64,000 nucleotides of DNA from positions 26,875 to 90,874 of IMG/VR virus record IMGVR_UViG_3300046453_000093; one strand, given 5' to 3'. The notes beneath the pieces were generated by a model. The model was not told where the DNA came from. It did no database searches and worked only from the letters and a program-made list of their open reading frames with translations. Source of the DNA: a virus (Duplodnaviria > Heunggongvirae > Uroviricota > Caudoviricetes). The position numbers and the translations under genes are program-made. Shown here piece by piece: positions 1 through 23,641 of this stretch. The number at the start of each line of letters is the position of its first letter. Position 1 is the first letter of the stretch.

Positions 1-3
1 GAG

Positions 4-342
4 TTGAGTTTTAGAGATATACAATATTTACATACAACATCAGCTACTTTCACAAGAGGTTATCTATACATTGACAATGACGAAGCAAGGAAGCGTCTTG
101 GCTTAGAGCGTGAAGAGATTAAGGTTAATCAAATTTCAAGAGCAGAGATTGAAAAAGGTCTTAAAGGTGGAATTCCACTATTGAAGAAGATGTTGGAAAC
201 AATCAAAGAATCTGAGAATAGTGCTTTATTGCGAGAAGTCGTTAGTATTGCTAAAGAAATCAAAGTTGACAACACAACAAAATTACAACTGTTAGCAGAA
301 GCTAGTGGCATCCCAATGGAAGTTTTAATTGATATGGAATAA
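4..342 (+). CDS. hypothetical protein, 5'-truncated at window edge; C-terminus looks helix-turn-helix (LLAEASGIPMEVL)
   Basis: ORF runs off the window start. HTH-like C-terminal segment. Followed directly by a strong hairpin terminator. Confidence 0.3.
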   Translation: MSFRDIQYLHTTSATFTRGYLYIDNDEARKRLGLEREEIKVNQISRAEIEKGLKGGIPLLKKMLETIKESENSALLREVVSIAKEIKVDNTTKLQLLAEASGIPMEVLIDME

Positions 343-347
343 TAAAT

Positions 348-373
348 AAGAGGTAGTTCTACCTCTTATTTTC
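348..373 (+). terminator. rho-independent terminator
   Basis: aagaggta-gttc-tacctctt hairpin followed by a T-run. Confidence 0.7.
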
Positions 374-382
374 AATAAAAGG

Positions 383-1351
383 GTGAAGGAAATGAAAGAA
401 AAAATTTTAATTACAGGTGGAACAGGACTTATAGGTTCACATCTGATAGAATTTATCACTACTAAATTTGCTGATAAATATGAAATTATTGCTACAAAAT
501 TACCTAGAACACTACCGTATCTACCTGATGTTGTAAATTATATTGATTGTGATTTTACTGATTTATACGCTTGCATCAATCTTATCAGAGGAAATAAACC
601 TGAATACATAATACATTTAGGGGCGCAATCGTATCCAAAAATTTCTGAGTCAAATCCTTATATGACTGTAAATAGTAATATAGTTGGAAATTTAAATATT
701 TTTGAAGCAATTAGAATATCAGAGTATACTCCTAAGAAAATCATGGTTACTTGCTCGTCAGCTTCCTATGGTGATGTTAAAGGTAAATATCCTACAACTG
801 AAGACACTGCATTTAACCCATTAAGTCTTTATGCAGTTACAAAAGCTACTCAAGACCTTCTTTCATATCAATACTTTAGGAATTATGAATTACCTATTGT
901 TAGAATCAGACCATACATTATTGCAGGTGAACGTCAGGGCGAAAACAATGCTATCAATAGTTTTGCAAAGCAAATTGCAATGATTGAAAAAGATGGCAAA
1001 GGTGTCTTGAAGGTTGGCAATTTAAACACATTTCGAGACATTACTGATGTCAAAGATTTTGTAAGAGGTTTATGGAGCTTGATGTTTGATGGTGAAAATG
1101 GTGAAGCTTATAATATTTGTTCAGGCACACCAAGAAAAATGAAAGACATTTTAAATCAATTGGTTGAGTTGTCGAATGCTGACATTACAATTGAGGTTGA
1201 TGAATCAAGATTAAGACCTTCAGACATTCCTTTAGAGCATGGCTCTAATCACAAAATTAATACATTGACAGGTTGGCAACCTGAAATACCTTTTAGGGAT
1301 ACCTTAGAAAGAATTTTAAATCATTGGAGGGATAAGGTTGAATCAAATTAA
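383..1351 (+). CDS. NAD(P)-dependent sugar epimerase/dehydratase (extended SDR family), probably acting on an NDP-sugar such as GDP-heptose or GDP-mannose
   Basis: N-terminal Rossmann motif TGGTGLIGSHL. Catalytic YxxxK (YAVTK). ~320 aa, typical of Gmd/GalE-like enzymes. RBS aagggtgaagg. Confidence 0.75.
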   Translation: MKEMKEKILITGGTGLIGSHLIEFITTKFADKYEIIATKLPRTLPYLPDVVNYIDCDFTDLYACINLIRGNKPEYIIHLGAQSYPKISESNPYMTVNSNIVGNLNIFEAIRISEYTPKKIMVTCSSASYGDVKGKYPTTEDTAFNPLSLYAVTKATQDLLSYQYFRNYELPIVRIRPYIIAGERQGENNAINSFAKQIAMIEKDGKGVLKVGNLNTFRDITDVKDFVRGLWSLMFDGENGEAYNICSGTPRKMKDILNQLVELSNADITIEVDESRLRPSDIPLEHGSNHKINTLTGWQPEIPFRDTLERILNHWRDKVESN

Positions 1352-2252
1352 ATGTTACTTTCATTTCGGTGGAGAATTAAGAACAGGTGGTACAAGAATC
1401 CTAAACAACTTAAAAAAATATTCTCCTGAAAATATTACTTTTGTAGATAATCTAAACGATTGTGACTTTGCAATTATTCATTTGCAATATAAACATGATT
1501 TAGATTTTTATTTACACAACTGTAATAAACCAATAATCTTCTTAATTTCAGAACTCCAAAACTCAAAAGAATATTTCAACGAATTCTTCTCCAATCCCCT
1601 TCTAAAAATGACTTACACCTTTCACCCTCTGAGACACTTAGGATACATTGATGAAAACGACAAGAAAAACCATGTGCTTGGTGCTTGGGGTTTTGACGAA
1701 CAATTGTTTGGACAAGACAATCCTTATGAATTAGTTCAATTGGATAGACCTAACACATCAATATGTTTTGGTTTTTATGATTCCGAACGTTACAGCGAAC
1801 AGTATTTGGCAACAAAACAAACAGGTGGAAAATTAATTCATTTAGATATTAAGAAGTGGGATTTTCTAAGACAAGGATTGTTTTTTGATGAAAAACATCA
1901 TTGGTACAAAGAATGGGTTGAGAATGACGAATTAGTTGATTTATATAAATCATGTAAATTTGTTTCAGGCTTACGTTCAGGGGCAGGATTCGAAGTTCCT
2001 GTATTAGAAGGTGCATCATTAGGGCTTACTCCAATATGTTTTGACAATATCTATTACAGACAATGGTTTAATGATTTTGCTGTTTTTATTCCTGAAGAAT
2101 TTGATGTAGACATGGTAAACAATCTAGTTAATATCTATCGGAATTATGATTCATTCAAGTTGAAATTAGACCAAATTAACTATGTTCGTGACAGATTTAA
2201 ATGGGAGACAATTGCAAAAAACTTTTGGAAAGAAGTAAATGCTTCGTTATAG
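1338..2252 (+). CDS. putative divergent GT-B glycosyltransferase (GT4-like C-terminal lobe)
   Basis: C-terminal segment [39 protein letters not shown] resembles the GT4 donor-binding motif (EGFG-PVLEAMA-G-P). Overlaps the upstream gene by 14 nt. Confidence 0.4.
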
Positions 2253-2263
2253 AGGTGATTCAA

Positions 2264-2716
2264 ATGGAGTTACAGACTATTCTTGAAAAGAATGGTGGCA
2301 CTATTAACTTTTATGGTCAATGGCAACATGATGGATTTTATTGGATTGAAGCAGACAAGGGACAAATTCATATAGCAGATGATGTATTTATTGGATGGGG
2401 AACTAGAATAGTTTGCAATGAATACATTTACATAGGAAAATGCACAATCATTGCTGAAAATGTAACGATTCGAGATATGAATCATATGTTTGATGAACCT
2501 GATGAAATAAGATACATGAAACATCAACCATATTCAACAGCACCAACAATTATTGAAGATGGGGTATGGGTTGGTGCAGGGGCTAGAATCTTAAAAGGTG
2601 TTAGGGTTGGTCATGGTGCTATTGTAGGTGCAAATGCTGTCGTTACAAAGGATGTTCCACCAAATGCAATTGTTGGTGGAGTACCTGCAAAAATTATTAA
2701 ATATAGACATGAATAG
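2264..2716 (+). CDS. hexapeptide-repeat (left-handed beta-helix) sugar O-acetyltransferase, MAT/WbbJ-like
   Basis: Tandem hexapeptide repeats [46 protein letters not shown]. Start moved to the ATG at 2264, preceded by RBS agaggtga; the track ORF begins at 2201 inside the upstream gene. Confidence 0.75.
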
Positions 2717-2727
2717 GAGGTGACAGG

Positions 2728-3906
2728 ATGCTAAGAGTTTTATTGGTAACAGATAGCATCACACTCAATACAGGTTATGCTCAAACAGCAAAAATCATTG
2801 TAGATGCTTTATTAGAAGCAAAATGTGATGTGAGACAATTGGCTTGGGGTATAAATGAAGAACCTCAAGACAGCAAGATAAAATTATATCCTACTTCACC
2901 GAATGACTTTTACGGAAAAACATCTTTTCCAAATATAATTGAAGACTTTCTTCCACAAGTTGTTCTAAGTTTTGGGGACTTGTTTAATGTGAGTTGGATT
3001 GCAAATTTCCCAAACCGTTTTTTTAAATGGGTAGCTTATTTTCCGATTGATGCTGAACATATTACTGTAGCGCAAAAACACATGATACTACAAATTGACC
3101 AACCAATTGTCTATTCTAAAACTGCTTTAAATATAGTTCTAAGCGAGACAAAGCGTGAAGACTTAAAAATAATTTATCATGGAATTGATACTGAAAAGTT
3201 TCAGCCATTAAATAAAGATGAATTGAAAAGAAAGTATCGGATGGATGGAAAGTTTATTGTTGGTACTGTTGGCAGAAATAACGCACGTAAAAATTTTCCT
3301 GCTCTTATGGAAGCTTTTGCTGAGTTTTCTAAAGACAAGCCTGACGCAAAACTCTACCTTCACACGAAGCCAGTTGATGTAGGACATAATTTATATGAAT
3401 ACATCAAGAGGTATAAATTGGATAATAAAGTTTATTTTACCCAAGATATGGATGGAGTAATTGGACTTAGTGATGATGAACTAGTTGAATTATACAACTG
3501 TTTTGACATATTTGTTTCGACAACAGCAGGAGAAGGGCTTGGTCTTCCAGTTTTAGAAGCACAGGCATGTAAAGTTCCTGTGCTAGTTACGGATTATTCG
3601 GCATGTAAAGAATTTGTCCCTAAAGATTTCAGGATTAAAGTTAAAGCACATTATTTTGAACCGTTTTGGGATGTTGAACGAGCCATAATCGACCAAGAAG
3701 ATTTGGTTGACAAGTTAAACAAATTATACCACAACAAACAAGTCCTTCCAATCATTGGAGAAAAGTCTAGAAGCTTTGTTGAAGGATATGATTGGAAGTT
3801 CATTAAGCCATTGTGGTCATATTTTATCAAATTATATGCAGAACAACAGTTCGGTATTAAAGAAGAGGATACGAATAGTACTATGTCTAAATTCATTCGT
3901 ATTTAA
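2728..3906 (+). CDS. glycosyltransferase family 4 (GT-B, retaining)
   Basis: EGLGLPVLEAQACKVPVLVTD motif (E-x7-E). ~390 aa. No TM segment. RBS ggaggtga. Confidence 0.8.
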   Translation: MLRVLLVTDSITLNTGYAQTAKIIVDALLEAKCDVRQLAWGINEEPQDSKIKLYPTSPNDFYGKTSFPNIIEDFLPQVVLSFGDLFNVSWIANFPNRFFKWVAYFPIDAEHITVAQKHMILQIDQPIVYSKTALNIVLSETKREDLKIIYHGIDTEKFQPLNKDELKRKYRMDGKFIVGTVGRNNARKNFPALMEAFAEFSKDKPDAKLYLHTKPVDVGHNLYEYIKRYKLDNKVYFTQDMDGVIGLSDDELVELYNCFDIFVSTTAGEGLGLPVLEAQACKVPVLVTDYSACKEFVPKDFRIKVKAHYFEPFWDVERAIIDQEDLVDKLNKLYHNKQVLPIIGEKSRSFVEGYDWKFIKPLWSYFIKLYAEQQFGIKEEDTNSTMSKFIRI

Positions 3907-3923
3907 GGATTGAAGGTGAAAAG

Positions 3924-5021
3924 GTGACAAGTGTATTGTTTCGAGGGTCATGCTTGGGTTTCTCAGGATATGACAACACAAATTTACTGTATGTAATTGG
4001 TATGATTCAGAATGATGTAAATGTCAAGTTGATTGAACAATTGGATAACAGAGATTTCTATTTTCAATTCATTAGAAAAGATTGGGTTGAATTGTTAAAA
4101 GATGCAATGGATAAACCAATGCCTGACGAATACATATATTTTAATAGAACAACGTTAGACTGTTTTAAACAATATCCAAATGCACTAAAGACATATGTTT
4201 CAACAGTGTGGGAAACTGACCCTGCACCTGATTATTTTATTGATGCATTTAATAATATAGAAGCAAATGGAATTATTGTTCCAAGTAATTTTAATAAAAG
4301 AATGATAGATGGGAAAATAAATAAGCCTGTCCACACATTAAGAGAAGGTTTGGACTTATCACTCTATGAAAATATGAGTGAAAATAAACCTCAAGGGACT
4401 TTTAAATTTCTCAGTTTATTCCAATGGCTACCAAGAAAAGGTTATGATGTATTGCTAGAAGCATATTTTAAAGAGTTTCAAAATCATGAAGATGTTGCAC
4501 TAGTGATTAAAACATCCTCTTTAAATTATGGGGTAATTCCATCAAGTCAGATTTTGGGGAATATCGCCAATGTAAAAAGAAGGTTTGGTAAAAGTCTACC
4601 TGTATATGTACTTCCTACACACATTTCATATGACGAAATTCTTAATTTGTATAATGACTGCCATAGTTATATCTGTGCATCTAGAACAGAGGGGTATTGC
4701 AGACCATTACTAGAAGCAATGGCGAGTAACTTACCTGTAATAACTACCAATTGGGGTGGACAAACGGACTTTGTAAACAATGAGAATGGATACTTACTAG
4801 ATTACAGACTTGCAAATATTCCACAACAATGGTATTCAGGAGATTTTCAGCCACATCAAGTATGGGCTGACCCAAGTGTGGAACATCTACAACACTTAAT
4901 GAGAAGCGTATATGAAAATCGTTCTGAAGCACAAGAGAAGGCTAAAAGGGCAAAGCAGATGACTCAAGAATATGATTATAGATTGATTGCAAAAGATTTA
5001 GAACAAATCTTATTCAGTTAA
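3924..5021 (+). CDS. glycosyltransferase family 4 (GT-B)
   Basis: TEGYCRPLLEAMASNLPVITTNWGGQTDF motif. GTG start with RBS gaaggtgaaaagg. No TM segment. Confidence 0.75.
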   Translation: MTSVLFRGSCLGFSGYDNTNLLYVIGMIQNDVNVKLIEQLDNRDFYFQFIRKDWVELLKDAMDKPMPDEYIYFNRTTLDCFKQYPNALKTYVSTVWETDPAPDYFIDAFNNIEANGIIVPSNFNKRMIDGKINKPVHTLREGLDLSLYENMSENKPQGTFKFLSLFQWLPRKGYDVLLEAYFKEFQNHEDVALVIKTSSLNYGVIPSSQILGNIANVKRRFGKSLPVYVLPTHISYDEILNLYNDCHSYICASRTEGYCRPLLEAMASNLPVITTNWGGQTDFVNNENGYLLDYRLANIPQQWYSGDFQPHQVWADPSVEHLQHLMRSVYENRSEAQEKAKRAKQMTQEYDYRLIAKDLEQILFS

Positions 5022-5023
5022 TT

Positions 5024-6031
5024 TTGAAGGGTGGAGGGGAAATGGAAATATACAGAGCGAAATCACCTCTAAGGGTTTCTTTTTCAGGTGGTGGGACAGA
5101 TATAGAGCCATATTTAATAGATTATGGCGGTTGCGTTTTAAGTACCACAATTAATAAGTATTGCTATGCTACTCTTATTCCAAGAGATGATAATCAAGTG
5201 ATTATTCATTCTCATGATTTCAATCTGACAGTGAAGTATCAGCTTGACGAAAAAGACTCACTAGAAGACGACCTGAAGCTTGTAAGAGCAGTTATAAGGA
5301 GACTTGATGTAAGACAAGGGTTCGAAATTAAGATTCACAGTGACGCTCCTGTGGGTTCAGGATTAGGGTCTTCGTCCAGTTTGGTAGTTTGTCTAATTGG
5401 AGTTTTGTCAAAATGGATGAATCTATCTTTGTCGCTATATGATATTTCAAGAATGGCTTATGAGATTGAAAGAGTAGATATGAATATAAGTGGAGGTCAT
5501 CAAGACCAGTACGCAAGTGCATTTGGCGGGTTTAATTTTATAGAGTTCTTTGACAATAAAACCATTGTTAATCCATTAAGAATTAAAGAAAGCTATCTAA
5601 ATGAATTGGAATATAACCTGCTTCTATGTTTTACAGGTAAGACTAGAATGGGAGAAAGCATTATCAAAAAACAGGTTAGTAGTTATAAAGATAATGTGCA
5701 GTATCTTCATGAGTTAAAAAGTCTTACTTTAGATATGAAGAATTCCCTATTGACAGGAAATGTTCATGAATTTGGTTCGCTTTTTCACGATGCTTGGGAG
5801 AATAAAAGGAAGCTTACCAGTGGTATTTCAAATCCACATATTGATGAATTATATGAGATTGGCAGAAATGCGGGTGCTTTAGGTGGAAAGCTTTTAGGTG
5901 CAGGTGGCGGTGGCTACTTGCTTTTTTATTGTACTGACAAGCAAAAAGTTGGGAAAGCATTGCAAGATGCAGGTGGACAATTAGTAGATTTTAACTTTGA
6001 TTATAAGGGGTTAACGACATGGAAAATATAA
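5024..6031 (+). CDS. hddA: GHMP-family sugar kinase, D-glycero-D-manno-heptose 7-phosphate kinase (HddA-like)
   Basis: GHMP motif PVGSGLGSSSSLVVCLIG. N-terminal PLRVSFSGGGTD. Context between gmhA, gmhB and hddC. Alternative start at 5042 (MEIYRAK). Confidence 0.7.
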   Translation: MKGGGEMEIYRAKSPLRVSFSGGGTDIEPYLIDYGGCVLSTTINKYCYATLIPRDDNQVIIHSHDFNLTVKYQLDEKDSLEDDLKLVRAVIRRLDVRQGFEIKIHSDAPVGSGLGSSSSLVVCLIGVLSKWMNLSLSLYDISRMAYEIERVDMNISGGHQDQYASAFGGFNFIEFFDNKTIVNPLRIKESYLNELEYNLLLCFTGKTRMGESIIKKQVSSYKDNVQYLHELKSLTLDMKNSLLTGNVHEFGSLFHDAWENKRKLTSGISNPHIDELYEIGRNAGALGGKLLGAGGGGYLLFYCTDKQKVGKALQDAGGQLVDFNFDYKGLTTWKI

Positions 6032-6570
6032 TTAATGAACACTTAGAAGTTGTAGAATCAATGAAAAGTCTTGTTTCAAAGATTGACTTAATTGCTGATG
6101 TAATTATTCAAGCTTATGAAGATGGAAATAAAGTTTTGATTTTTGGTAATGGTGGAAGTGCAGTAGATTCTGAACACTTCACCACAGAATTGGTTAGTCG
6201 TTTTAAGTTTGACAGAGAAGGATTAAATGCAATCAGTCTGTCAAGTAATGTTGCTACTCTAACTGCCATTGGGAATGATTATGATTTTGATTCAGTGTAT
6301 TCTAGACAGGTAAAGGCATATGCAAATCAGGGCGATATTGTAATTGGTATTACTACAAACGGATTTTCACCAAATGTAATTAAGGGTTTAGAAAAGGCGA
6401 TTGAATTAAAATGTATTCCAGTTCTAATCACAGGAAACAAGAATATTGACAATGAGTATATTACACTAAATATTAATTCCAATAATACAGCACGTATTCA
6501 AGAAGCTTACCTACTAGCTATTCATATGATATGCGAAAAGGTAGAAAGAGTATTGTTCGGTGAGAAATAA
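6019..6570 (+). CDS. gmhA: sedoheptulose-7-phosphate isomerase (SIS domain), GmhA
   Basis: IFGNGGSAVDSEHFTTELVSRF matches the GmhA signature GNGGSA-DAQHF--EL. 183 aa. Confidence 0.85.
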   Translation: MENIINEHLEVVESMKSLVSKIDLIADVIIQAYEDGNKVLIFGNGGSAVDSEHFTTELVSRFKFDREGLNAISLSSNVATLTAIGNDYDFDSVYSRQVKAYANQGDIVIGITTNGFSPNVIKGLEKAIELKCIPVLITGNKNIDNEYITLNINSNNTARIQEAYLLAIHMICEKVERVLFGEK

Positions 6571-7072
6571 AACTGTTTTTCTAGATAGAGATGGAGTTAT
6601 TTGTGAAGATATTCACCATCTACATAAGGTAGAACAACTGGAATTGATAAATGGTACAAAAGAAGCAATTCGAGCATTGAAAGATAATGGATATCTAGTC
6701 ATTGTCATAACGAATCAGTCAGTAGTCGCAAGAGGACTTGTAGACGTATTTGGAGTCATTACAATTAATAATCACTTAAATAACATGGTTGACAACCTGA
6801 TTGACGACTTTTTGTTCTGTCCTCACTTGCCTACAGATGATTGTTTATGCAGAAAGCCGAATATTCAGCTTATCAAAAATGCAAGTCTTTATTATGATGT
6901 AGATATTTTCGAATCATATATAGTTGGTGATAAGTCAACCGATATTCAAGCAGGGTATAATGCGGGGCTAAAAACAATCGCTGTGAGAACAGGGTATGGA
7001 GAAATGCCTGAATATGCTGACTACAAAGCTGACAATCTTTTAGACGCTGTGAGGAAAATAATATGCAAATAG
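6560..7072 (+). CDS. gmhB: D-glycero-D-manno-heptose 1,7-bisphosphate phosphatase (HAD family), GmhB
   Basis: VFLDRDGVI HAD motif I. CPHLPTDDCLCRKP matches the GmhB zinc-binding CPH...C-CRKP. 170 aa. Confidence 0.85.
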   Translation: MRNKTVFLDRDGVICEDIHHLHKVEQLELINGTKEAIRALKDNGYLVIVITNQSVVARGLVDVFGVITINNHLNNMVDNLIDDFLFCPHLPTDDCLCRKPNIQLIKNASLYYDVDIFESYIVGDKSTDIQAGYNAGLKTIAVRTGYGEMPEYADYKADNLLDAVRKIICK

Positions 7073-7701
7073 CAGTAATTCTATGTGGTGGAAAAGGAAC
7101 AAGATTATTTCCTTTAACAAGGGAAATTCCTAAACCAATGTTACCAATTAAAGGCAAGTCTGTATTAGAATATCAAATTGAATTTCTTAGAAAAAATAAT
7201 GTAAAAACTATCTATCTAGCTGTTGGATATTTGAAAGAGCAGATTATTGATTATTTTAAAGATGGTTCTAATTTTGGTGTTGAAATCAAATATCTTTATG
7301 ATAATTGTGAGGGAACAGGCGGTGCGTTAAGAGGATTAAAAACGCTACTTGGTCTTAATACTCCTATTCTAGTAATGAATGGGGACACATTGTTTGATGT
7401 TGACATTCAGGATATGGTAAATCATCATAGTGAATCAATCACTATAGCAGTTGCCAATGTAGAAAACCCTGATAGATACGGTGTAGTTCAAGATGGAAAG
7501 ATTCAAGAAAAAATTAAGGTTGATAGAGGTTTGGTTTCAATAGGTTTATATATTATTGAACCTGATGTTTTCAGTCTGATTTTTGATGGATACTGCTCAT
7601 TAGAGAAAGATATTTTTCCATTGTTAAAACAAGGATTTTATCAATATGAAGGCGATTGGTATGACATGGGTACGATGGAAGTTTATGAAGAAGTGAGGTG
7701 A
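7063..7701 (+). CDS. hddC: D-glycero-D-manno-heptose 1-phosphate guanylyltransferase-like nucleotidyltransferase (HddC-like)
   Basis: N-terminal ILCGGKGTRLFPLT sugar-nucleotidyltransferase motif. ~210 aa. Context. Nucleotide specificity (GDP vs other) cannot be read from sequence. Confidence 0.7.
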   Translation: MQIAVILCGGKGTRLFPLTREIPKPMLPIKGKSVLEYQIEFLRKNNVKTIYLAVGYLKEQIIDYFKDGSNFGVEIKYLYDNCEGTGGALRGLKTLLGLNTPILVMNGDTLFDVDIQDMVNHHSESITIAVANVENPDRYGVVQDGKIQEKIKVDRGLVSIGLYIIEPDVFSLIFDGYCSLEKDIFPLLKQGFYQYEGDWYDMGTMEVYEEVR

Positions 7702-8363
7702 AATATATGGCACTAAGAGCATCTTTGAATTCAAATGTAAATGATAGAAGTAAGTGGATTGGTTCTGTTGATGGTCAAAATATTCCAATTGTCACAAGGC
7801 ACTCTGCTTCAGGTACATCTGAGACAGTTCTTATTTACATCTTTAATGATGGAAATCGTGACAGCGATTCAGAGCCAATGAATTTAGAGTATAGAAATGT
7901 CACTATTAAACCAAGAGGTAAGAGAACAAGGATTCTTACAAGCCTTGGAGAAGACATAGCACCATATGTAAATACAATTCCTATTGAAGACCCAAAATGG
8001 TATGGAAGTGGCACTAAAATATTAACAGACCCTATAGTTTTGGGTGGAACTCAAATTCGAGAAGAATTTTGGGTTAAAAGCATACAAGGAAATAACTTAA
8101 TAGTTGATAGGGGTCAAAACAATTCTACAGCTTTAACTTTACCCAATAGAATGTGGATTGAAGCTTACCCTGACCATTTATATCTTAGTTTGACAGGTAA
8201 AGATGGTACTTGGGTACAAGGTAGTCAATTACTATTGCCTGATATTTTGGAAGGTTGGACACCAATCAAGGTATATGTGAGAGTTTCGACAGGCGCATTA
8301 AAAACTCAAATGAAAATAGATTCATTTTTATCTATTAATGGTGATGAATATCCTAAGTTTTAA
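7698..8363 (+). CDS. hypothetical beta-rich protein, paralog of 8388-9152; translationally coupled to hddC (likely true start ATG at 7707, MALRAS...)
   Basis: Shares motifs with the next ORF (MAL N-terminus, YIFNDG / YVYNDG, NLEYR / NLRYE, IKPRGK / LKPKSF). Overlaps hddC stop. RBS gaggtg. Confidence 0.5.
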   Translation: MKYMALRASLNSNVNDRSKWIGSVDGQNIPIVTRHSASGTSETVLIYIFNDGNRDSDSEPMNLEYRNVTIKPRGKRTRILTSLGEDIAPYVNTIPIEDPKWYGSGTKILTDPIVLGGTQIREEFWVKSIQGNNLIVDRGQNNSTALTLPNRMWIEAYPDHLYLSLTGKDGTWVQGSQLLLPDILEGWTPIKVYVRVSTGALKTQMKIDSFLSINGDEYPKF

Positions 8364-8387
8364 AAATAATAAAGGGGGAATTACCCA

Positions 8388-9152
8388 ATGGCTTTACAAT
8401 TATTAAAAGATTTCACTGTAACAGGTGGGAGATATGTAAATTTAATCACAATGGACACACCATTGACAATTACACAAGATGGTGGGATTGACGATATTAA
8501 TACAATAGTACCAACTTATTTTTATGTGTACAACGATGGAAAAAGGCGTGACCCAATGTTTGACCCTGTAGATGGTACAGATATGAATTTAAGATACGAA
8601 CAAATTATTTTAAAACCAAAATCTTTCCAAACAGTTATTATTTCAGCAGGAGGTGGAAGTAATGGTACTTCAACTAGATTATATCTTGGTGCAGTTTCAG
8701 TTACAACTCCCGCAGTTATGAGGATAGAAATTGGTTCAGTATTAGCTTTAACTCAAGGTGTAAACACAGAAGATGTTTTAGTTATGAAAATTGGTGGAGA
8801 TGCTTACGGTTCTTATGTTGATGTAATTAGAAACTATCGAAATTCATCTACAACTCTATCAGCCTTGAATATTGTTCCAGGAAATACTGTTGATGTAAGC
8901 ACAAAACACATTTTTCTTTCAAAAACAACTGATTTTTCAGGCTCGGTTGGAGGGTCACAGTTGACTCTTAGTAATGTAACTAGTTCGATTACAGTTCCTT
9001 CAGCAAACCCTGATGTAACTCAATATCAAACTATTTATATTAAAGCTGTTCCTCAACTGCAAAAATCAGGTTCAACTCAGATTACTCGTATTCCAACCCA
9101 ACATAAAACTGATGTATATTTTGAAATCTCATATAGAGAGTTACCGAACTAA
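8388..9152 (+). CDS. hypothetical protein, paralog of 7698-8363
   Basis: Paralogy as above. RBS aaaggggg. Confidence 0.5.
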   Translation: MALQLLKDFTVTGGRYVNLITMDTPLTITQDGGIDDINTIVPTYFYVYNDGKRRDPMFDPVDGTDMNLRYEQIILKPKSFQTVIISAGGGSNGTSTRLYLGAVSVTTPAVMRIEIGSVLALTQGVNTEDVLVMKIGGDAYGSYVDVIRNYRNSSTTLSALNIVPGNTVDVSTKHIFLSKTTDFSGSVGGSQLTLSNVTSSITVPSANPDVTQYQTIYIKAVPQLQKSGSTQITRIPTQHKTDVYFEISYRELPN

Positions 9153-9436: not shown

Positions 9437-10270
9437 ATGTCATTACAATTTATTTCTGTAAATACACCTTCCAATATCATTGCGTATATTGGAAGTGGAA
9501 TTCCAGTAATTACAAGCCATAATGTATTCACTACAATAGTAGATGATTCAGATTTTGGCATAAAAGATTTACTTATTGATAAGTCATCTCATAAATTCGA
9601 TGAAATCATGGCAGGAAAACCATATATTGATGTTTACTATGATGGTGCTAATATTCAAGGAACTCTAATGAATGTAGATTTCAATTTCCCATCAATTGCA
9701 AAAGTATCATTGTTTGGAGGAAGTTATGATTGTGAGGTAAATGGAGATTATAAGTTTGTCTTCCCTGTTTCTATTCACCCTGCTATTTCAGAAAAACGTG
9801 TGAATGTAACAATTAAAGCTGAAGGATTTCCACCTACATCTATTGAAATTGGTGGAAGTAATGAAAACGCAAATGCTATAACTTTTCTTGACGAGAATGG
9901 AGTGTACAACGTTACACCTTCAAGCACTGAAGAATTAGCTTTTTATTGGCAAAACAAACTGGTAGATTTACAATGGAGTGCTGTAGACCTCGCAACAATT
10001 ACAGGATTATTGGCTCACACTATGTTTACTCATGTCTTGCCTAATATTGAACAATTAAATTTAACTGTAGAAGAACAAAATGGCTTACAAGAACTTCAAA
10101 CAAATCTTTTACCTTTGATTTCTACCAGTCTTTCAACTATTAAGCCTGACGAAAATTCAATGGATATTCATTATGCTTCCTATCGTTACCATTTATATCA
10201 AGCAAATGAAGCTATACAAAAATACATAGAAGATAAAACTAATATTTCGAAATATTCTCCATTTGAATAA
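9437..10270 (+). CDS. hypothetical protein
   Basis: RBS aaaggggg. 277 aa. No recognisable motifs. Confidence 0.45.
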   Translation: MSLQFISVNTPSNIIAYIGSGIPVITSHNVFTTIVDDSDFGIKDLLIDKSSHKFDEIMAGKPYIDVYYDGANIQGTLMNVDFNFPSIAKVSLFGGSYDCEVNGDYKFVFPVSIHPAISEKRVNVTIKAEGFPPTSIEIGGSNENANAITFLDENGVYNVTPSSTEELAFYWQNKLVDLQWSAVDLATITGLLAHTMFTHVLPNIEQLNLTVEEQNGLQELQTNLLPLISTSLSTIKPDENSMDIHYASYRYHLYQANEAIQKYIEDKTNISKYSPFE

Positions 10271-10295: not shown

Positions 10296-10493
10296 ATGGA
10301 AGGTTGTTTGGTACTGTGTGAACATTGCCCAATTGAGAAAACCCCAAATGGTTCTTGTTATGACATGAATGGTGTTTGGACACTAATTCAGGAAGAATGG
10401 GTTTATCAAGGGACATGGAAATGTAATCTATACAATAAAGAAATGGACATATGTGATTGTCCAATGGAAATGAATACCGAAATGGGAGACTAG
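10296..10493 (+). CDS. small Cys-rich hypothetical protein (7 Cys in 65 aa)
   Basis: Good RBS atgaggtga. Followed by hairpin aatgggaga-ctagt-tctcccatt. Confidence 0.4.
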   Translation: MEGCLVLCEHCPIEKTPNGSCYDMNGVWTLIQEEWVYQGTWKCNLYNKEMDICDCPMEMNTEMGD

Positions 10494-10544
10494 TTTCTCC
10501 CATTTCATTGACTACGAAAATAAGGGAAAGGTGGTGGATTGTGA

Positions 10545-13500
10545 TTGGAAGAATTATTACTCGAAAGACAGTTGAATAGCAAAACTTATCTAAATGAAGA
10601 TGGTACTCGTACCATGAAATATTTTGGTAGACCTATTCACTTTGATAAGAATGGCAAACTCGAAGAAATTGATGTAAATTTTCATCTAAATACCACATCC
10701 AACCCTGCATATTATTTATTTAATACAGTTAATAATAGTTTCAGAATAGGATTATCGAAAAATTTATCTATTGATAAATCTATTAAATTTTCTTTTAGAT
10801 ACGATGGTGTTGGTGACATATTCACAACCATTAAGGGTTTAGCCTTATACGATTCTGAAAAAGACGAATATACAATTTTTGAAAAACCTCAAGCGAATAC
10901 AGGTTCTATTGAAAACAATATCGCCAAATATCCAAATGTATTCAATGGAATGGATTTTGAATTTCATTCCTTAGATGACAAGTTGAAAGAATATATTTAT
11001 CTAAATGACAAGGGCAATATTCCAAATCCTACGGATTATGGATATAATCCTGAAACTACATATTTAATTGTGCTTAATGAACTAAGCACAAACTTGTTAG
11101 AACTTCAATACAATGAAGAACAGCTAGAAGTTTACAATGAAGGAATCCAAAAATTAATCTCCCCAAAAGAATGGGCAAAGGATAATGACCAAAAGGATTT
11201 AACCATTCTCAACAACTATAATGCTGACACTGGCGAATATTATTTCGGTGTTCCTTATTCAGAGATTCAGAACGCCAATTTACCTATAACAATTGACCCT
11301 ACGTGGCAGACTTCGGGAGTTCCAACAGTTCAAAACTTTGATTGTACTTATGAATTTGACTCTTTTGAAGGCGGCTATTATACCTATCCTAACCTAACCA
11401 CTTTAGGTATGTTTCCTGAGAATGGAGGTTATATCTCTCAACGGAGTATGATTAAATTTGATTTATCAGGACTTCTGGCTTCATTTAATAATGTTGTAAA
11501 AGCGTATTTTAATTTTACGTTTCAGTCAACCAATGCTTTCTATTTGTCTATATTGACTAGTTATTCTCCAAATTCTCAAAACATGTTTGAGAATATTATC
11601 CCTAATTCGACTGGATTTTTAGTAGCTAGTTCACCTGTAGATGTTACAGCAGTAGTAAAAAATTGGCTTTCTAACCCTAGTTCAAACTATGGTTTTGGTC
11701 TTGATTATTTCGGTGGCAATACCTCAAGAATTTATGGTTTAGGTAGTGGTGTCAGCACCCAACCTTATCTTAGCATTGATTACGTTTCTAGTGTTTTAGG
11801 TTTTACTGGTTTGCCAACTTCTAACTCTATCAAGTGGACATGGAATGCGTTAGCAGAAGCAGAAAAATACGTTATCTATGATAATAATAATGTCAAACTT
11901 GCTGAAATACCAAGTGGAACATTGACATGGACTGAGACAGGCTTATCGCCAAACACCTCGTATACTCGTAAAATTCGATATGTAACAGGCGGAGTCGAAC
12001 AAACTCCTGAAACAGTGGCGAGTGCTACAACTTATACGGTTTTACAGCCTGTTAGCAATTTAGTTGCTACTAATGTGACGAGCAATAGTGCGACTTGGCA
12101 ATGGGGCGACATAGTTTTTGGAAATGAACTCGCCCCTCTGTTTGACAGTGGGAGATGGTCTACTAGTTCCACTGTAACATTTAATAGCCCAACGAAGTTA
12201 ACCATTGATAATACAAGCGGGTCTTATTTTGGGTCATATGTAGAAATAACAGTAAAGTCGAACACTAACTATCTGTTAAATTTATTAAAAGGTGGCACTG
12301 GTGCAAGCACTAACGGATATGTCAGAATTACAGGTGTTGTTAATGGTGTTGTAGAAGCCACAAATATAGCTAACAATAACACTGGTGTTGCAATTCCTTT
12401 TAATAGTGGAACTTACTCTTCTTTGAGAATTTTCTTTTATGCAAATTACACTAGTGGAGGAATTTCTTTTGAGAATGTTTCTATCAAAGAAACAAACTCA
12501 GGAATCATTTCTTACGAAATACTAGATAAAAATGGTGTTTTATTGTATACGACTCCTGATGGAAACACAAAGACATGGACTGAAAACAATTTACGATATA
12601 GCTCTAATTATATCAGACAAGTTCGTGTGGCTAGAAATGGTGAGAGAAGTAGCAATGTTCAGGTGAGTGTGACTACGAGTGCTAGACCTATAAATATGTC
12701 AGCGCAAACTATTACGGTTAATCCTAGTGCGGATACCTATAATAATGGCTTTAATCCTACCATAAATTATGGAACAGCTACACAGTTTTCTGTAGGTAGA
12801 GGTGCTTCAGTATCTTATCTATATAAGGGATTTTTAAAATTCCCTATCCCGCTTTCTACTGACATTACACTAAATACCGCTACTCTAAAATTGTACAGTA
12901 CCACAGCAATTAGTACAAGTTATAATTGGTTTATAGAAAATGTGAATAGTCAATGGGACGAAACAACGTTAAACTACAATAATATGCCAGTTAGCAATAC
13001 AACAACACCGTTGTATAATGTAAGTAGGGCAATTTCCGCTAACATAGATAGTGACTTTGTTCTTGATGCCACACTGGTTAAAAATTGGATAAATAATCCT
13101 TCTTCAAATTATGGGGTATCAATAAGGCATAATGGAACTACTAATGGTAATTTTGCCCAATTTAATTCAAAAGAATCAGCTGATGCTACAAAGATACCAA
13201 GGCTTGTAATAAATTATACACCTTCTATTCCACCACTCAAGCCAACAGTCCTATCAGGGGCAGTTTTATCGTCTTCCTCCATTCGTTGGTCTTGGAGTGC
13301 AGGAGATGGCACAGCAACCGAATATCGCATTTACAATGCTGATACAGACCAATTGATTGGAACTTCTTCGACTAGTAGCTTTGATGAAAGTGGAGTTACA
13401 TTAGGCAACACATACAATCGCTATGTGGTTGCATACAACTCAGGTGGAGAGTCGCCTGTAACAAGTACAACATTGCATACTTCGCCTTTGGCTAATTTTA

Positions 13501-15188
13501 GAGGTATTCCACAAACTGCTACTTCTATTAAATGGGCTTTCGACCTGTTTACCACTGTTGACAAAGTTATTATTTATGACAATAACAATGTGAAGCTGAC
13601 TGAAGTCTTAAGTGGTACGACTGAGTGGGTTGAAACAGGGCTACTACCAAATAGTACTTACACTAGAAAAGCAAGATATGTAAAAAATGGTGTAGAAGAC
13701 AGTGTATATGTTGTTGTCTCTAATAATACCTATGCCACTTTAGTTGTCCCTCAAAGTGCAAGTGGAGTCGCTGTGAATACTAATACCATTACTTGGTCTT
13801 GGGATGATACGGTAAACCAAGGTATCACTGGATTTGAAGTACTAGATAAATTCAACAATGTAAAATACAGTGGTAGCAATACGGTTAAGTCTTGGACTTC
13901 CAAACAATTAAGATACGGAACAGATTATGAGCGATATGTGAGAAGTGTTCGTAATGGTGAAAAAAGTGGATTAGTTAAGATAACTGCTAGGACACAGGAC
14001 AGACCTGCAAATATAGATGAGATGACGACATATGAAACTTTGAATGTTAGTCAGGATGTTTATATCAATTCAAGCACTCCGACTTCATCATCATCAACAG
14101 GTGCTATAAGCTACATTGGAAAATCAGGAACTACTTTATATAGGTATTTAATTAAATTTAATACTTCAACCATTCCAATTGGACGTGAATTAAAAACCGC
14201 AAAAATTAGGATTTATGAAACCTCCTATTCAGGTACTCCATCACAAATGGGACTTTATAAAATTACACAAAGTTGGTTAGATACTGCAAATTGGAATACT
14301 CAACCATCTTGTGAAAGTATTTCGATTGCTCAAATACCATTTTCTTCGACAACTGGAAAATATTATGAAGCCAATTTACCTATCGCAAATATCCAAGATT
14401 GGGCAAATAATAATAATGGGTTATTAATCAAGTCAGACGAAGTATCGTCAGGGTATGTACAAGTAAATACTTATGAGGGATTATTCCAACCATTTTTGGA
14501 CATATCGCATGAGTCGCCAATTGCCCCATTATCACCTAGCAATTTACAAGGCTCAATCAAAACAGGCTCAAGTATTTTATGGCAGTGGAATGAAACAACT
14601 TCTATTAACGCTCAAGGCTATCGTATTTACAATGCTGACAATGACCAATTGATTGTTGAATTACCTGTCGGAATTACAAGTTATGAAGAAACTGGCAGAG
14701 TTATGGGAATAACATATAATCGCTATGTGGTTGCATATAATTCCTATGGTGAGTCTCAAGTTGTTTTGACCTCTTATTTGTTCGACCAATCACCTCCAAC
14801 TAATATTGTTGGCACACCACAATCTTCAAGTCGCATAATTTGGACATTCGAGCCTGTGAGTGGATTTACAGAATATCGTATTTATTACTTTAATTCAACG
14901 AACAATACAAATACTCTTTTCGCTAGGGTAAAATATGAAAATGGGCAATATAACACGTATTTAGAAAGTAACTTAACGACTCCAATAGGTGGTTTCGGAA
15001 ATCCTCAGTTACCACGTAACGGATTGAACCCAAATACGACAGAGACAATAAAGGTAACGACAGTTGGAGAAACATATGAAAGCAGATATTCTAACTCAGT
15101 TAGTGCAACAACTTACACGCTACCACCAATGAGAACAATCAGTGGTCAAAAACTAGGTTTGAATAATTTAAAATGGACAATTATATAG
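10545..15188 (+). CDS. giant (1547 aa) virion-associated adhesin-like protein: repeated fibronectin type III domains plus three CBM-like (DNRLRE-type) beta-sandwich modules
   Basis: Repeated FN3 pairs (EYRIYNADTDQLIG...YNRYVVAYNSGGES twice; IKWTWNALAEAEKYVIYDNNNVKL...TSYTRKIRYV twice). Three modules sharing LVKNWLSNPSSNYGFGL / LVKNWINNPSSNYGVSIRHNG / IQDWANNNNGLLIKSDE. Very S/T/N-rich. Confidence 0.6.
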   Translation: MEELLLERQLNSKTYLNEDGTRTMKYFGRPIHFDKNGKLEEIDVNFHLNTTSNPAYYLFNTVNNSFRIGLSKNLSIDKSIKFSFRYDGVGDIFTTIKGLALYDSEKDEYTIFEKPQANTGSIENNIAKYPNVFNGMDFEFHSLDDKLKEYIYLNDKGNIPNPTDYGYNPETTYLIVLNELSTNLLELQYNEEQLEVYNEGIQKLISPKEWAKDNDQKDLTILNNYNADTGEYYFGVPYSEIQNANLPITIDPTWQTSGVPTVQNFDCTYEFDSFEGGYYTYPNLTTLGMFPENGGYISQRSMIKFDLSGLLASFNNVVKAYFNFTFQSTNAFYLSILTSYSPNSQNMFENIIPNSTGFLVASSPVDVTAVVKNWLSNPSSNYGFGLDYFGGNTSRIYGLGSGVSTQPYLSIDYVSSVLGFTGLPTSNSIKWTWNALAEAEKYVIYDNNNVKLAEIPSGTLTWTETGLSPNTSYTRKIRYVTGGVEQTPETVASATTYTVLQPVSNLVATNVTSNSATWQWGDIVFGNELAPLFDSGRWSTSSTVTFNSPTKLTIDNTSGSYFGSYVEITVKSNTNYLLNLLKGGTGASTNGYVRITGVVNGVVEATNIANNNTGVAIPFNSGTYSSLRIFFYANYTSGGISFENVSIKETNSGIISYEILDKNGVLLYTTPDGNTKTWTENNLRYSSNYIRQVRVARNGERSSNVQVSVTTSARPINMSAQTITVNPSADTYNNGFNPTINYGTATQFSVGRGASVSYLYKGFLKFPIPLSTDITLNTATLKLYSTTAISTSYNWFIENVNSQWDETTLNYNNMPVSNTTTPLYNVSRAISANIDSDFVLDATLVKNWINNPSSNYGVSIRHNGTTNGNFAQFNSKESADATKIPRLVINYTPSIPPLKPTVLSGAVLSSSSIRWSWSAGDGTATEYRIYNADTDQLIGTSSTSSFDESGVTLGNTYNRYVVAYNSGGESPVTSTTLHTSPLANFRGIPQTATSIKWAFDLFTTVDKVIIYDNNNVKLTEVLSGTTEWVETGLLPNSTYTRKARYVKNGVEDSVYVVVSNNTYATLVVPQSASGVAVNTNTITWSWDDTVNQGITGFEVLDKFNNVKYSGSNTVKSWTSKQLRYGTDYERYVRSVRNGEKSGLVKITARTQDRPANIDEMTTYETLNVSQDVYINSSTPTSSSSTGAISYIGKSGTTLYRYLIKFNTSTIPIGRELKTAKIRIYETSYSGTPSQMGLYKITQSWLDTANWNTQPSCESISIAQIPFSSTTGKYYEANLPIANIQDWANNNNGLLIKSDEVSSGYVQVNTYEGLFQPFLDISHESPIAPLSPSNLQGSIKTGSSILWQWNETTSINAQGYRIYNADNDQLIVELPVGITSYEETGRVMGITYNRYVVAYNSYGESQVVLTSYLFDQSPPTNIVGTPQSSSRIIWTFEPVSGFTEYRIYYFNSTNNTNTLFARVKYENGQYNTYLESNLTTPIGGFGNPQLPRNGLNPNTTETIKVTTVGETYESRYSNSVSATTYTLPPMRTISGQKLGLNNLKWTII

Positions 15189-17691: not shown

Positions 17692-17720
17692 GGAGATTTT
17701 CTCTATCTCTATTTTTATTG
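17685..17720 (+). terminator. putative rho-independent terminator
   Basis: gagatag-ggagattttct-ctatctc hairpin followed by tatttttatt. Confidence 0.45.
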
Positions 17721-22912: not shown

Positions 22913-23641
22913 ATGAAAACACTTATCGCAGATACAGCGGACGTTGTAATGAGAAGAAAATCAGATGGTAAAACTATTTTTACCGCTGAAGCACAAATCG
23001 CAGGAATCTCACAGGAAATTTCTGAGAATGAAGTACGTGGAGGTATTGGTAACAAGAAAATTAGTGTTATCCGTAGTGATAAAAATATCAATTTAACTAC
23101 TAAAATGGCATTATTTGACCTTGAATACCTTAGTATGACTCAAGGTGTTGCAGTTGAAAGTGGTACTGCTACTGTAACTAAGAAAGAAGAACTTTCAGTT
23201 GTTGGTTCAGGCACTTTAACTGTTACAGTAACAGGTACTCCTGCAAACAACAAAGTAACTCTTATCAACTCTAAAGGTGTGTCACAAGAGTTCACAGCAG
23301 TTGCTAAAGCTTGTACAGTTACAGCCCCATTTGCTACAGCAGGTGAAAAAGTAACTGCACTTTATAAAGACACTGTAACAGGTAATATTGTTAAATTGCA
23401 ATCAGATACATTCTCTGAAAACTATGAAGTTGAATACCGTACAATTGCGTACAATCCAGTAACCAACCAAGTAGTTGCAGATATCTATTTCCAATTTGAT
23501 AACTGCTTACCTTCAGGTGCGTTTGAGATTTCCCTTGAAAACGGAAATGCCTTAGCCCCTGAATTGAAGTTCCAAGCTTTAACTGCACCAAATTCTTCTG
23601 ATATTGGTCGTATTGTTGAAGTTCCAAGGGATGTAGCTTAA
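22913..23641 (+). CDS. putative major tail (tube) protein
   Basis: Consensus RBS agggagg. Flanked by terminators (high-expression unit). Position immediately upstream of chaperone pair and tape measure gene. 242 aa with T/V-rich Ig-like C-terminal region. Confidence 0.55.
   Translation: MKTLIADTADVVMRRKSDGKTIFTAEAQIAGISQEISENEVRGGIGNKKISVIRSDKNINLTTKMALFDLEYLSMTQGVAVESGTATVTKKEELSVVGSGTLTVTVTGTPANNKVTLINSKGVSQEFTAVAKACTVTAPFATAGEKVTALYKDTVTGNIVKLQSDTFSENYEVEYRTIAYNPVTNQVVADIYFQFDNCLPSGAFEISLENGNALAPELKFQALTAPNSSDIGRIVEVPRDVA

Follow-up and report, generated by a model that had tools for sequence, protein, structure and literature searches.

A late-operon cassette of an uncultured SPbeta-like siphophage that may coat the virion with a heptose-containing glycan

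A cluster of nine genes at positions 383–7701 was analysed in a 64,000-nucleotide (nt) stretch of DNA, referred to below as the window, which covers positions 26,875 to 90,874 of the IMG/VR virus record IMGVR_UViG_3300046453_000093 (Caudoviricetes). The cluster combines genes of a predicted nucleotide-heptose pathway with those of three glycosyltransferases and two sugar-tailoring enzymes. It lies among late structural genes, and a large part of it was also found, together with two paralogous beta-proteins, in an unrelated phage. We give an even chance to the reading that this horizontally mobile late-operon cassette glycosylates a surface protein of the virion in the cytoplasm. A more specific version is put forward tentatively, with somewhat less than even confidence. 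According to it, the cassette is a self-contained, mobile means of glycan decoration that brings its own acceptor beta-proteins along with three transferases, enzymes for tailoring and a sugar supply that can be exchanged, and any recipient phage could display an O-acetylated, heptose-containing glycan.

In the proposed mechanism, GmhA, an HddA-type kinase, GmhB and a nucleotidyltransferase would convert host sedoheptulose-7-phosphate to nucleoside diphosphate (NDP)-D-glycero-alpha-D-manno-heptose, most likely linked to guanosine diphosphate (GDP). A short-chain dehydrogenase/reductase (SDR) would epimerise or redox-modify the heptose without 6-deoxygenation. Three soluble enzymes of the GT-B fold would then assemble a short glycan in the cytoplasm, and a hexapeptide-repeat enzyme would O-acetylate it. 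As acceptor, a surface protein of the virion is proposed, with the two downstream paralogues, which move together with the enzymes, as the best candidates; the head proteins encoded upstream, or the large fibronectin-III (fn3)/CBM96 and esterase proteins encoded further downstream, come next. The outcome would be a glycan coat of the particle serving for shielding, stability or adhesion.

Gene families were assigned via Pfam, NCBIfam, PHROGs and solved-structure (PDB) searches, which agreed with each other at the family level. All nine co-oriented genes reported in an initial annotation of this stretch are present on the + strand at the positions given there. The first gene (383–1351, likely start ATG 392) encodes an extended SDR of the GDP-manno-sugar clade. 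It is followed by genes for a small divergent GT-B glycosyltransferase of 304 amino acids (aa) (1338–2252), a WbbJ/maltose-acetyltransferase-like hexapeptide-repeat O-acetyltransferase of 150 aa (2201–2716, likely start 2264) and two glycosyltransferases of family GT4, namely GT4-1 (2728–3906) and GT4-2 (3924–5021). The pathway genes come next in the order kinase, isomerase, phosphatase and nucleotidyltransferase. They encode an HddA-type GHMP kinase, i.e., a D-glycero-D-manno-heptose 7-phosphate kinase (5024–6031, likely start 5042), the sedoheptulose-7-phosphate isomerase GmhA with a SIS domain (6019–6570), the HAD-IIIA heptose-1,7-bisphosphate 7-phosphatase GmhB with a CxH...CxC zinc motif (6560–7072) and a sugar-1-phosphate nucleotidyltransferase of the ManC/HddC group (7063–7701). 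Start and stop codons overlap at 1338/1351, 6019/6031, 6560/6570 and 7063/7072.

The cluster is located in the head region of a phage genome. The upstream genes were taken from L001, a 45.7-kb Logan contig that is identical to the window and adds 7.6 kb upstream. Their order is YonG-like, terminase, portal, YonD-like, YonC-like, YonB-like and YonA-like, followed by the cluster; the Pfam tags YonG_N, YonD_N and YonB fall on these genes, and the YonB-like protein belongs to phrog_12438 ('virion structural protein', head and packaging). The cluster starts directly after the YonA-like gene (4–342), one gene beyond the YonB-type head gene. According to the window open reading frame (ORF) and family scan, the + strand from 1 to ~45.4 kb forms a single late operon, in agreement with the initial annotation, which had placed the block among late structural genes. 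The 3' end of this operon encodes a 2670-aa tape measure, Dit, Tal, tail proteins, an endolysin and a holin-like protein, and the replication genes are located on the – strand from 46.3 kb. In the SPbeta-type phage BUCT082 and in Brevibacillus phage Sundance the head genes run straight into the tail genes with no such block; thus, the window carries an insert of ~19 kb (383 to ~19742).

All features taken to mark an SPbeta-like phage were found. The head module is collinear from YonG to YonA, the tail genes include YomV/W/X/Y, the tape measure is long, and the strand opposite to these genes encodes a PolIII-alpha-type polymerase. This polymerase shares 60% identity with its Sundance counterpart, the tail-tube-like protein (22913–23641) has 50% identity to homologues of SPbeta-type Bacillus phages, and the tail genes have 24–50% identity to those of BUCT082. 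These similarities, together with the upstream Yon-type genes, allow us to assign the element to an uncultured SPbeta-like siphophage. The tail and lysis proteins, including the endolysin, are similar to those of Bacillus phages and the GC content of the window is ~33%, and on these two grounds a low-GC Bacillus-type bacterium is the probable host. When GTDB species genomes were scanned with the profile of the small GT-B, no relative and, by that method, no prophage copy was found, so that no host can be named from a prophage. A near-identity DNA search with positions 1–8400 of the window against deposited phages and an Rfam scan of the window gave no match.

Directly after the cluster, two genes on the + strand encode paralogous proteins with 25% identity to each other: a 218-aa protein (7707–8363) and a 254-aa protein (8388–9152), the latter with 21% Ser+Thr. 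The paralogue family comprises 25 sequences in a large protein collection, and neither paralogue has a match in Pfam or PHROG. Modeling of the 218-aa protein using AlphaFold2 led to an all-beta model with a predicted local distance difference test (pLDDT) value of 83.9 and a predicted template modeling (pTM) score of 0.76. A fold search revealed a similarity to beta domains such as phage capsid insertion domains and tailspike anchors, and in BFVD the N-terminal ~90 residues of several tail fibres and tailspike-like proteins were among the matches. Judged by this fold, the two paralogues appear to be structural proteins of a surface type and not enzymes, and the 218-aa protein is a candidate acceptor or decoration protein. 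Scans of IMG/VR and metagenomes for the 218-aa protein revealed no lineage beyond the phages already seen.

The relatives of the cassette fall into two unrelated groups of phages. In the SPbeta-like relatives the small GT-B is 78%, 67% and 56% identical to that of the window, and the cluster follows YonB/YonA-like genes in L001, L003/L004 and L005. The position at the head site was scored only where the upstream DNA is known; in L016, L017 and L019 the cluster is collinear and the upstream head genes lie outside the contig. The second group is represented by the 72-kb contig L010 (also L011 and L020), which was reached via P0011, a ~290-aa relative of the small GT-B. The portal protein of L010/L011 belongs to phrog_2833 and the major head protein to phrog_2522 (E 2e-71), the latter being 14% identical to the YonB-like protein of the window. 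In L010, genes for a cement-like protein, the major head protein and two small proteins are followed by those for the small GT-B, a 345-aa ORF, the acetyltransferase, GT4-1 (E 6e-70) and GT4-2 (E 8e-54). Next come a nucleotidyltransferase fused to a PGM/PMM phosphohexomutase, which stands in place of the heptose genes, the two paralogues (E 5e-59 for the protein of window ORF 7698–8363 and E 2.5e-24 for that of 8388–9152) and then the endolysin.

This collinear set is shared with an unrelated phage, and the three transferases, the acetyltransferase, the nucleotidyltransferase and the two paralogues are therefore regarded as a conserved mobile core. The sugar-supply genes appear to be exchangeable, with a predicted heptose supply in the window and a predicted hexose supply (GDP-mannose or NDP-glucose) in L010. 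The retention of the enzymes together with two proteins of a surface type across unrelated capsids fits best with the paralogues being acceptors or glycan carriers. In addition, the relatives differ in their tailoring genes, namely O-methyltransferases and a small GDSL esterase, or in an HNH gene; such variability of tailoring genes is expected of an exposed glycan. Two irregularities were seen among the relatives: GT4-2 of L016 (1688–2793) was called as two fragments of 124 and 197 aa, for which a pseudogene, a faulty assembly or an interrupted gene could account, and in L017 an HNH endonuclease gene (5082–6197) is located between the two GT4 genes.

Cellular homologues of the transferases were found beside spore-coat genes. 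The locus L007 of Bacillus pseudomycoides (JARHXM010000021.1, 77407–98276) encodes homologues of the small GT-B (32% identity; WP_275857248.1), GT4-2 (27%) and the SDR (34%). This locus also contains rml genes, ManC, a Gmd/Rmd-like SDR pair, a YkvP-like glycosyltransferase, CotO and CotZ. In contrast to the phage cassette, L007 is cellular, contains neither a heptose pathway nor the paralogous beta-proteins, and shares identities of only 27–34% with the phage proteins. The phage transferases may have been derived from a locus of this type. Glycans of the spore surface are attached in the cytoplasm of the mother cell to a protein shell that is still being assembled, and no lipid carrier is involved; by analogy, this would be the same cell-biological situation as that of a maturing virion.

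Hidden Markov model searches upheld the gene identities and the heptose route of the initial annotation, placing GmhA, an HddA-type kinase, GmhB, a nucleotidyltransferase of the ManC/HddC group and two GT4 enzymes. The motifs quoted for these genes (GNGGSAVDSEHF, DRDGVI, CPH...CLCRKP, GGKGTRL and two E-x7-E) are present in the translations. The kinase is the clearest case in the pathway. Its best NCBIfam match is HddA (NF049969, E 2e-87, 294 bits; next family 127 bits), and its best PDB matches are the heptose kinases 3k85, 4n3o and 4usk (236–277 bits over the full length). The assignment of the kinase to the GHMP family and not to the PfkB family points to the alpha-anomer route. For GmhA, which contains the GNGGSAVDSEHF motif, two phosphoheptose isomerase models are at the top with 161 and 147 bits (E 2e-47 and 5e-43), and no KdsD/API matches were found in NCBIfam. 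GmhB was found at E 3e-40; its best equivalog is GmhB with 137.5 bits, and it passes the cut-offs of the HAD-IIIA and histidinol-phosphatase-domain models. The anomer-specific models of GmhB score 137 (beta) and 101 (alpha), values that do not tell the anomer preference. The nucleotidyltransferase matches Pfam NTP_transferase (E 2e-31). Thus, at the family level the heptose route is well supported, and the individual reactions are predictions.

The SDR matches Pfam GDP_Man_Dehyd (E 2e-54). Its top solved relative is the GDP-6-deoxy-D-lyxo-4-hexulose reductase Rmd of Aneurinibacillus thermoaerophilus (2pk3, 180 bits), and the other two are the GDP-D-glycero-D-manno-heptose 4,6-dehydratase of Campylobacter jejuni (7us5, 150 bits) and the GDP-6-deoxy-D-mannose reductase 6x3b. 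All three act on GDP-linked manno-type sugars, and the clade thus lends indirect support to GDP as the carrier. The alignment revealed SSA where 2pk3 and 7us5 read SSE, with YxxxK intact. The alanine is kept in the window and in both other aligned phage copies (3/3); the Gmd/Rmd-like homologues of Bacillus keep the glutamate. In GMD/RmlB-type enzymes this glutamate is needed for dehydration. The SDR, which is devoid of this residue, is therefore read as probably a GDP-heptose epimerase or oxidoreductase and not as a 6-deoxygenating dehydratase. A 6-deoxyheptose made by a DmhA-type route was rejected on the same grounds, and the 'possibly deoxy' heptose of the initial annotation is unlikely.

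Both GT4 enzymes match Glycos_transf_1 (E 3e-17 and 63 bits for GT4-1, E 1e-16 and 61 bits for GT4-2; cut-off 26.4) with an intact E-x7-E. The nearest phage homologues of GT4-1 are located in head modules of small siphophages, for example in S-CBS4 between the portal and head proteins. The best match of the acetyltransferase is WbbJ (95 bits). No match of the three transferases to a Pfam heptosyltransferase family was found at E<=0.01. The small GT-B has no match in Pfam or NCBIfam; the C-terminal half of the protein is similar to a GT4 C-domain (phrog_2170, E 3e-6; hhalign probability 85%), with alanine replacing the first glutamate of E-x7-E in the hhalign alignment. Its AlphaFold2 model (pLDDT 53, below 50 in the C-terminal half) is reliable only for the Rossmann-like N-domain. 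Only eight close homologues were found among 5.8 billion proteins, all inside a similar cluster, and a profile search gave 510 representatives of ~290 aa. In several of the relatives, two GT4 modules precede the small GT-B within a single protein of 1056–1503 aa, and these triple fusions appear to mirror the three separate transferases of the window. An intein with a LAGLIDADG endonuclease splits the three longest fusions tested (the metagenomic proteins P0038, P0075 and P0114; GT4 + GT4 + small GT-B, 1436–1503 aa). A triple fusion is encoded by locus L008 (427–4737) together with GT2 enzymes, methyltransferases, LicD, a cytidylyltransferase and an HddA-like kinase (46% identical); L008 looks like a larger glycosylation island, possibly viral.

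No transmembrane-grade stretch was found in the enzymes of the cluster, which the initial annotation had correctly described as soluble; the highest 19-residue Kyte-Doolittle mean (1.76) lies within the GHMP motif. The same analysis gave no transmembrane-grade segment among the proteins encoded between 4 and 20841, and no Pfam family of a priming phosphoglycosyltransferase, flippase/transporter or polymerase was found among the scanned proteins. A locus for a lipid-linked surface polysaccharide (Wzx/Wzy or ABC type) was ruled out because there are no membrane proteins. The initial annotation had concluded from the same lack of membrane-bound components that the acceptor is a protein. This step fails, given that soluble TagE and TarM glycosylate teichoic acid and that DNA-modification clusters have similar enzymes. 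Its conclusion that virion proteins are glycosylated is nevertheless ranked first here too, on other evidence: the linked proteins of virion fold, the head-adjacent site in two unrelated lineages and the homologues in a spore-coat locus.

At the left edge of the insert, between the YonA-like and SDR genes, there is a 12-bp stem-loop with a U-rich tract (344–371, + strand; –13.4 kcal/mol, z –4.5), and only ~25 nt separate this hairpin from the ribosome-binding site of the SDR gene, which leaves no room for a promoter. A sigma-70 promoter scan of the window showed no enrichment (87 found vs. 94 expected). On both grounds, expression of the cluster probably occurs by read-through of late transcripts. 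Two more stem-loops were found on the + strand: a strong one (10479–10506; –17.2 kcal/mol, z –5.8) between a small ORF (10296–10493) and the gene of a 1547-aa protein, and a terminator-like one with a T-run (17684–17710; –14.8 kcal/mol) directly after the esterase gene. All three may be attenuators or recombination relics.

An alternative that we consider unlikely is glycosylation of a host envelope polymer (wall teichoic acid, lipoteichoic acid (LTA) anchor or secondary polymer) by TagE/TarM-like enzymes, which would mask a receptor or reduce the sticking of progeny to debris. The soluble GT4 enzymes TagE and TarM act in the cytoplasm, where they glycosylate teichoic acid before its export, and need no flippase or priming enzyme; the prophage-encoded TarP glycosylates teichoic acid in Staphylococcus aureus, and glucosylated teichoic acid is the receptor of SPbeta-type phages. 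Besides these precedents, GT4-1 and GT4-2 have weak matches (~25–38 bits) to LTA-anchor/diacylglycerol glycosyltransferases, and an SGNH esterase of the virion type is encoded downstream. However, three transferases with tailoring enzymes suggest an oligosaccharide and not the single-sugar decoration typical of teichoic acids, and no TagE/TarM model or structure was among the matches. Moreover, two proteins of virion fold always accompany the cassette, its site is in the head module, and its 5' edge has no promoter-like element for lysogenic expression.

Sugar hypermodification of phage DNA is judged about equally unlikely and should be taken seriously. In this case, the GT-B enzymes would place heptose and further sugars on a hydroxymethylated or hydroxylated pyrimidine in order to evade restriction, and the four-gene pathway would supply the donor. 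Clusters of phages with arabinosyl-hydroxycytosine contain a phosphosugar isomerase, a kinase, a GmhB-like HAD phosphatase, a MurU-like nucleotidyltransferase and several BshA/GT4-like transferases of the GT-B fold (PMC13326640), a set similar to that of the window, and GT4-1 has a weak match to BshA. A phage cluster is reported to make mono- and di-heptosyl-5-hydroxymethylcytosine (Pyle et al., bioRxiv 10.1101/2023.12.21.572611). The replication module of the window also encodes a DndB-like protein and nucleotide-metabolism proteins. On the other hand, the kinases of the DNA-hypermodification clusters are APH-like and that of the window is of the GHMP HddA type. In the described clusters the transferase genes are adjoined by base-modifying genes, such as those for a base hydroxymethylase/hydroxylase or a C5-methyltransferase with a dioxygenase (PMC13326640; bioRxiv 10.1101/2023.12.21.572611). 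No thymidylate-synthase homologue, TET/JBP dioxygenase or C5-methyltransferase was found in the 64-kb window and the 7.6 kb upstream among ORFs of at least 190 aa. The neighbours here are head genes and proteins of virion fold, in two unrelated phages; the cluster belongs to the late structural operon, with the replication module on the other strand, and the O-acetyl and O-methyl tailoring genes and the esterase fit surface glycans better. Similar gene sets can serve DNA hypermodification, which is a warning for annotation, so context must decide.

Lysogenic conversion of the spore surface, in which enzymes of the prophage would change the glycans of exosporium or crust within the mother cell, is highly improbable. 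It is favoured by the B. pseudomycoides locus, where homologues of the small GT-B, GT4-2 and the SDR occur together with CotO, CotZ, the YkvP-like glycosyltransferase and rml genes, and by the fact that in B. subtilis SPbeta is inserted in spsM, a gene for spore polysaccharide. On the other side, the genes are inside a late virion operon without an independent promoter, the cassette is also present in the unrelated 72-kb phage between head and lysis genes, the linked proteins have a virion fold and are not spore proteins, and the profile-seeded scan of GTDB species genomes gave no prophage copy. Hardly credible is a metabolic or takeover role without a defined glycoconjugate (draining of sedoheptulose-7-phosphate or GTP, or a soluble heptose metabolite): in cyanophages and Caulobacter phage Cr30, heptose-pathway genes do occur as isolated 'auxiliary metabolic genes', located outside the structural modules and not accompanied by this transferase set, but such a role would leave the three conserved glycosyltransferases, the acetyltransferase and the linked structural proteins without a function, and L010 swaps the heptose genes for another sugar supply and keeps the transferases. 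In the T4-like phage Cr30 (L014, 2793–6532), an epimerase, a GT2, an HddA-type kinase and GmhA are encoded in the early region beside RNA ligases; this set appears to be a different phage heptose module.

Several points weigh against glycosylation of the virion by the cassette, or against parts of the proposed pathway. All four pathway proteins score below the NCBIfam equivalog cut-offs (294/600 for HddA; 161/276 for GmhA, with 147/209 for a second model; 137/178 for GmhB; 124/300 for HddC), so they are considered divergent members of their families. For the nucleotidyltransferase, the HddC model (123.8 bits) is matched by an archaeal GlmU-type model (124.6 bits). Its top solved relative is a UTP-glucose-1-phosphate uridylyltransferase (91 bits), followed by mannose-1-phosphate guanylyltransferases (85–88 bits) and the Yersinia HddC (66–67 bits). 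Thus, the family placement in the initial annotation held for the kinase as HddA type; the nucleotidyltransferase falls into the ManC/HddC/RmlA-fold group, in which HddC is not set apart from the GlmU type. The GDP carrier suggested there is plausible, with the SDR clade in its favour, and the tie and the uridylyltransferase match speak against a firm assignment. Ser/Thr-rich tails were sought on the head and tail-tube proteins and none was obvious, apart from a weak terminal S/T doublet. All relatives of the cassette are metagenomic, none of the deposited phage proteins searched represents the small GT-B or the 218-aa protein, and no cultured phage is known to carry the cassette. No Mycobacterium phage was among 29 tblastn matches of GT4-1, and the GT4 enzymes are not close to the mycobacteriophage enzymes. 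Phage DNA-glycosylation clusters share the enzymatic logic of the window (PMC13326640), one has been reported to install heptose on a DNA base (bioRxiv 10.1101/2023.12.21.572611), and the scan for base-hydroxymethylating enzymes covered ~72 kb of a ~130-kb genome.

The terminal doublet is located at the C-termini of the YonB-like proteins in all three SPbeta-like carriers: NDTTLA (L001, 6071–7036), DDTSLV (L005, 7469–8434) and KDSSLS (L003, 6894–7877). The C-termini in the cassette-free Sundance and BUCT082 differ; with three sequences against two, this is a lead to an acceptor site only.

Glycosylation of virions by virus-encoded enzymes is already known, and it is the combination of a heptose pathway, transferases and virion-fold proteins in one cassette that appears to be new. 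In mycobacteriophages Che8, Corndog and Myrna, soluble phage glycosyltransferases glycosylate capsid and tail-tube subunits in the cell, according to PMC12619734, which summarises Freeman et al. 2023 (Cell Host Microbe 31:1216). Shielding of the particle is the role proposed there; the glycosylation alters antibody recognition, which is relevant to phage therapy. As in these phages, the transferase genes are located beside structural genes, both in the window and in the unrelated L010. Unlike the mycobacteriophage systems, the cassette of the window moves between unrelated phages and includes a complete predicted pathway to a nucleotide-activated heptose as well as two virion-fold proteins of its own; in addition, the transferases are not close, a Firmicute host is expected, and glycosylation by the enzymes of the window is a prediction. 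In the searchable papers, virion glycosylation among bacterial viruses was cited only for mycobacteriophages, and the literature search found no system of phage virion heptosylation. In chloroviruses and mimiviruses, the virus encodes the enzymes that make nucleotide sugars as well as transferases by which capsid proteins or fibrils are glycosylated in the cytoplasm (PMC4691112). GT4-1 has a weak match to the chlorovirus glycosyltransferase B736L (3oy2, E 3e-7). The giant viruses differ in their eukaryotic hosts and their sugars (fucose, rhamnose, viosamine and others), and no heptose pathway is described there.

Among cellular systems, the GDP-D-glycero-alpha-D-manno-heptose pathway is described for the S-layer of A. 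thermoaerophilus and for the capsule or O-antigen of Campylobacter and Yersinia (Kneidinger et al. 2001, as cited in PMC7378029). The window shares with this route the SIS isomerase, GHMP kinase, HAD-IIIA phosphatase and ManC-like nucleotidyltransferase, and the SDR relatives 2pk3 and 7us5 come from the same systems. The cellular systems feed lipid-linked, exported glycans, and the window encodes nothing of that kind; in addition, the window proteins are divergent and the SDR is devoid of the dehydratase glutamate. In the spore-surface locus L007, the homologues shared with the phage lie beside CotO/CotZ. Heptosylation of a protein in the cytoplasm is known from TibC and AAH, which O-heptosylate an autotransporter protein before it reaches the surface, using ADP-heptose and a GT9-like fold. 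The transferases of the window differ from these enzymes, matching no Pfam heptosyltransferase family.

If the more specific reading of a self-contained decoration cassette is correct, it would be the first system to heptosylate virions and also the first to glycosylate virions in phages of Firmicutes. If the portable cassette is real, glycan coats would be a transferable trait of phage particles. If functional, the ~9-kb block would also be a compact toolkit for placing defined heptose glycans on protein scaffolds.

Downstream of the two paralogues, the + strand of the insert encodes three further proteins of interest. A 277-aa protein (9437–10270) was found only in the closest SPbeta-like relatives and not in L010. 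The 1547-aa protein (10545–15188) contains two CBM96 modules and fn3 domains and has 22% Ser+Thr, and an 827-aa protein (15208–17691) contains a GDSL/SGNH esterase domain. L017, the closest relative, keeps both large proteins downstream of the cassette; a 1156-aa fn3 protein of L016 contains the GDSL domain, fn3 proteins follow the cassette in L003/L004, and L010 contains neither the CBM96/fn3 protein nor the GDSL esterase. Judging by their domains, the two proteins are probably virion-associated and glycan-binding or deacetylating, and the 1547-aa protein is a possible alternative acceptor.

Some features of the window outside the insert were also noted. The tape measure protein (25011–33023, + strand, 2670 aa) matches the endolysin family phrog_669 at residues 1005–1376. 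The PolIII-alpha-type polymerase is split into two ORFs, which cover positions 39–649 and 653–1078 of PHROG 405 and lie ~330 nt apart. An HNH endonuclease gene is located directly upstream (the three ORFs of this region are 51075–52397, 52731–54701 and 54691–55377, all on the – strand), and no Rfam intron was found in the gap. In the replication module, a DndB-family (DNA-sulfur-modification-associated) protein is encoded at 55498–56736 (– strand; Pfam E 3e-38), near a guanylate-kinase-like gene (48589–49308) and a dNMP phosphatase gene (49641–50264); these genes may hint at a DNA or nucleotide modification separate from the sugar block. Finally, a DUF4326 protein adjoins a protein in which a ligase-like N-terminal NAD-binding domain is joined to a YspA/SLOG domain (61507–61794 and 62000–62698, – strand), and this pair may take part in small-molecule or nucleotide signalling.

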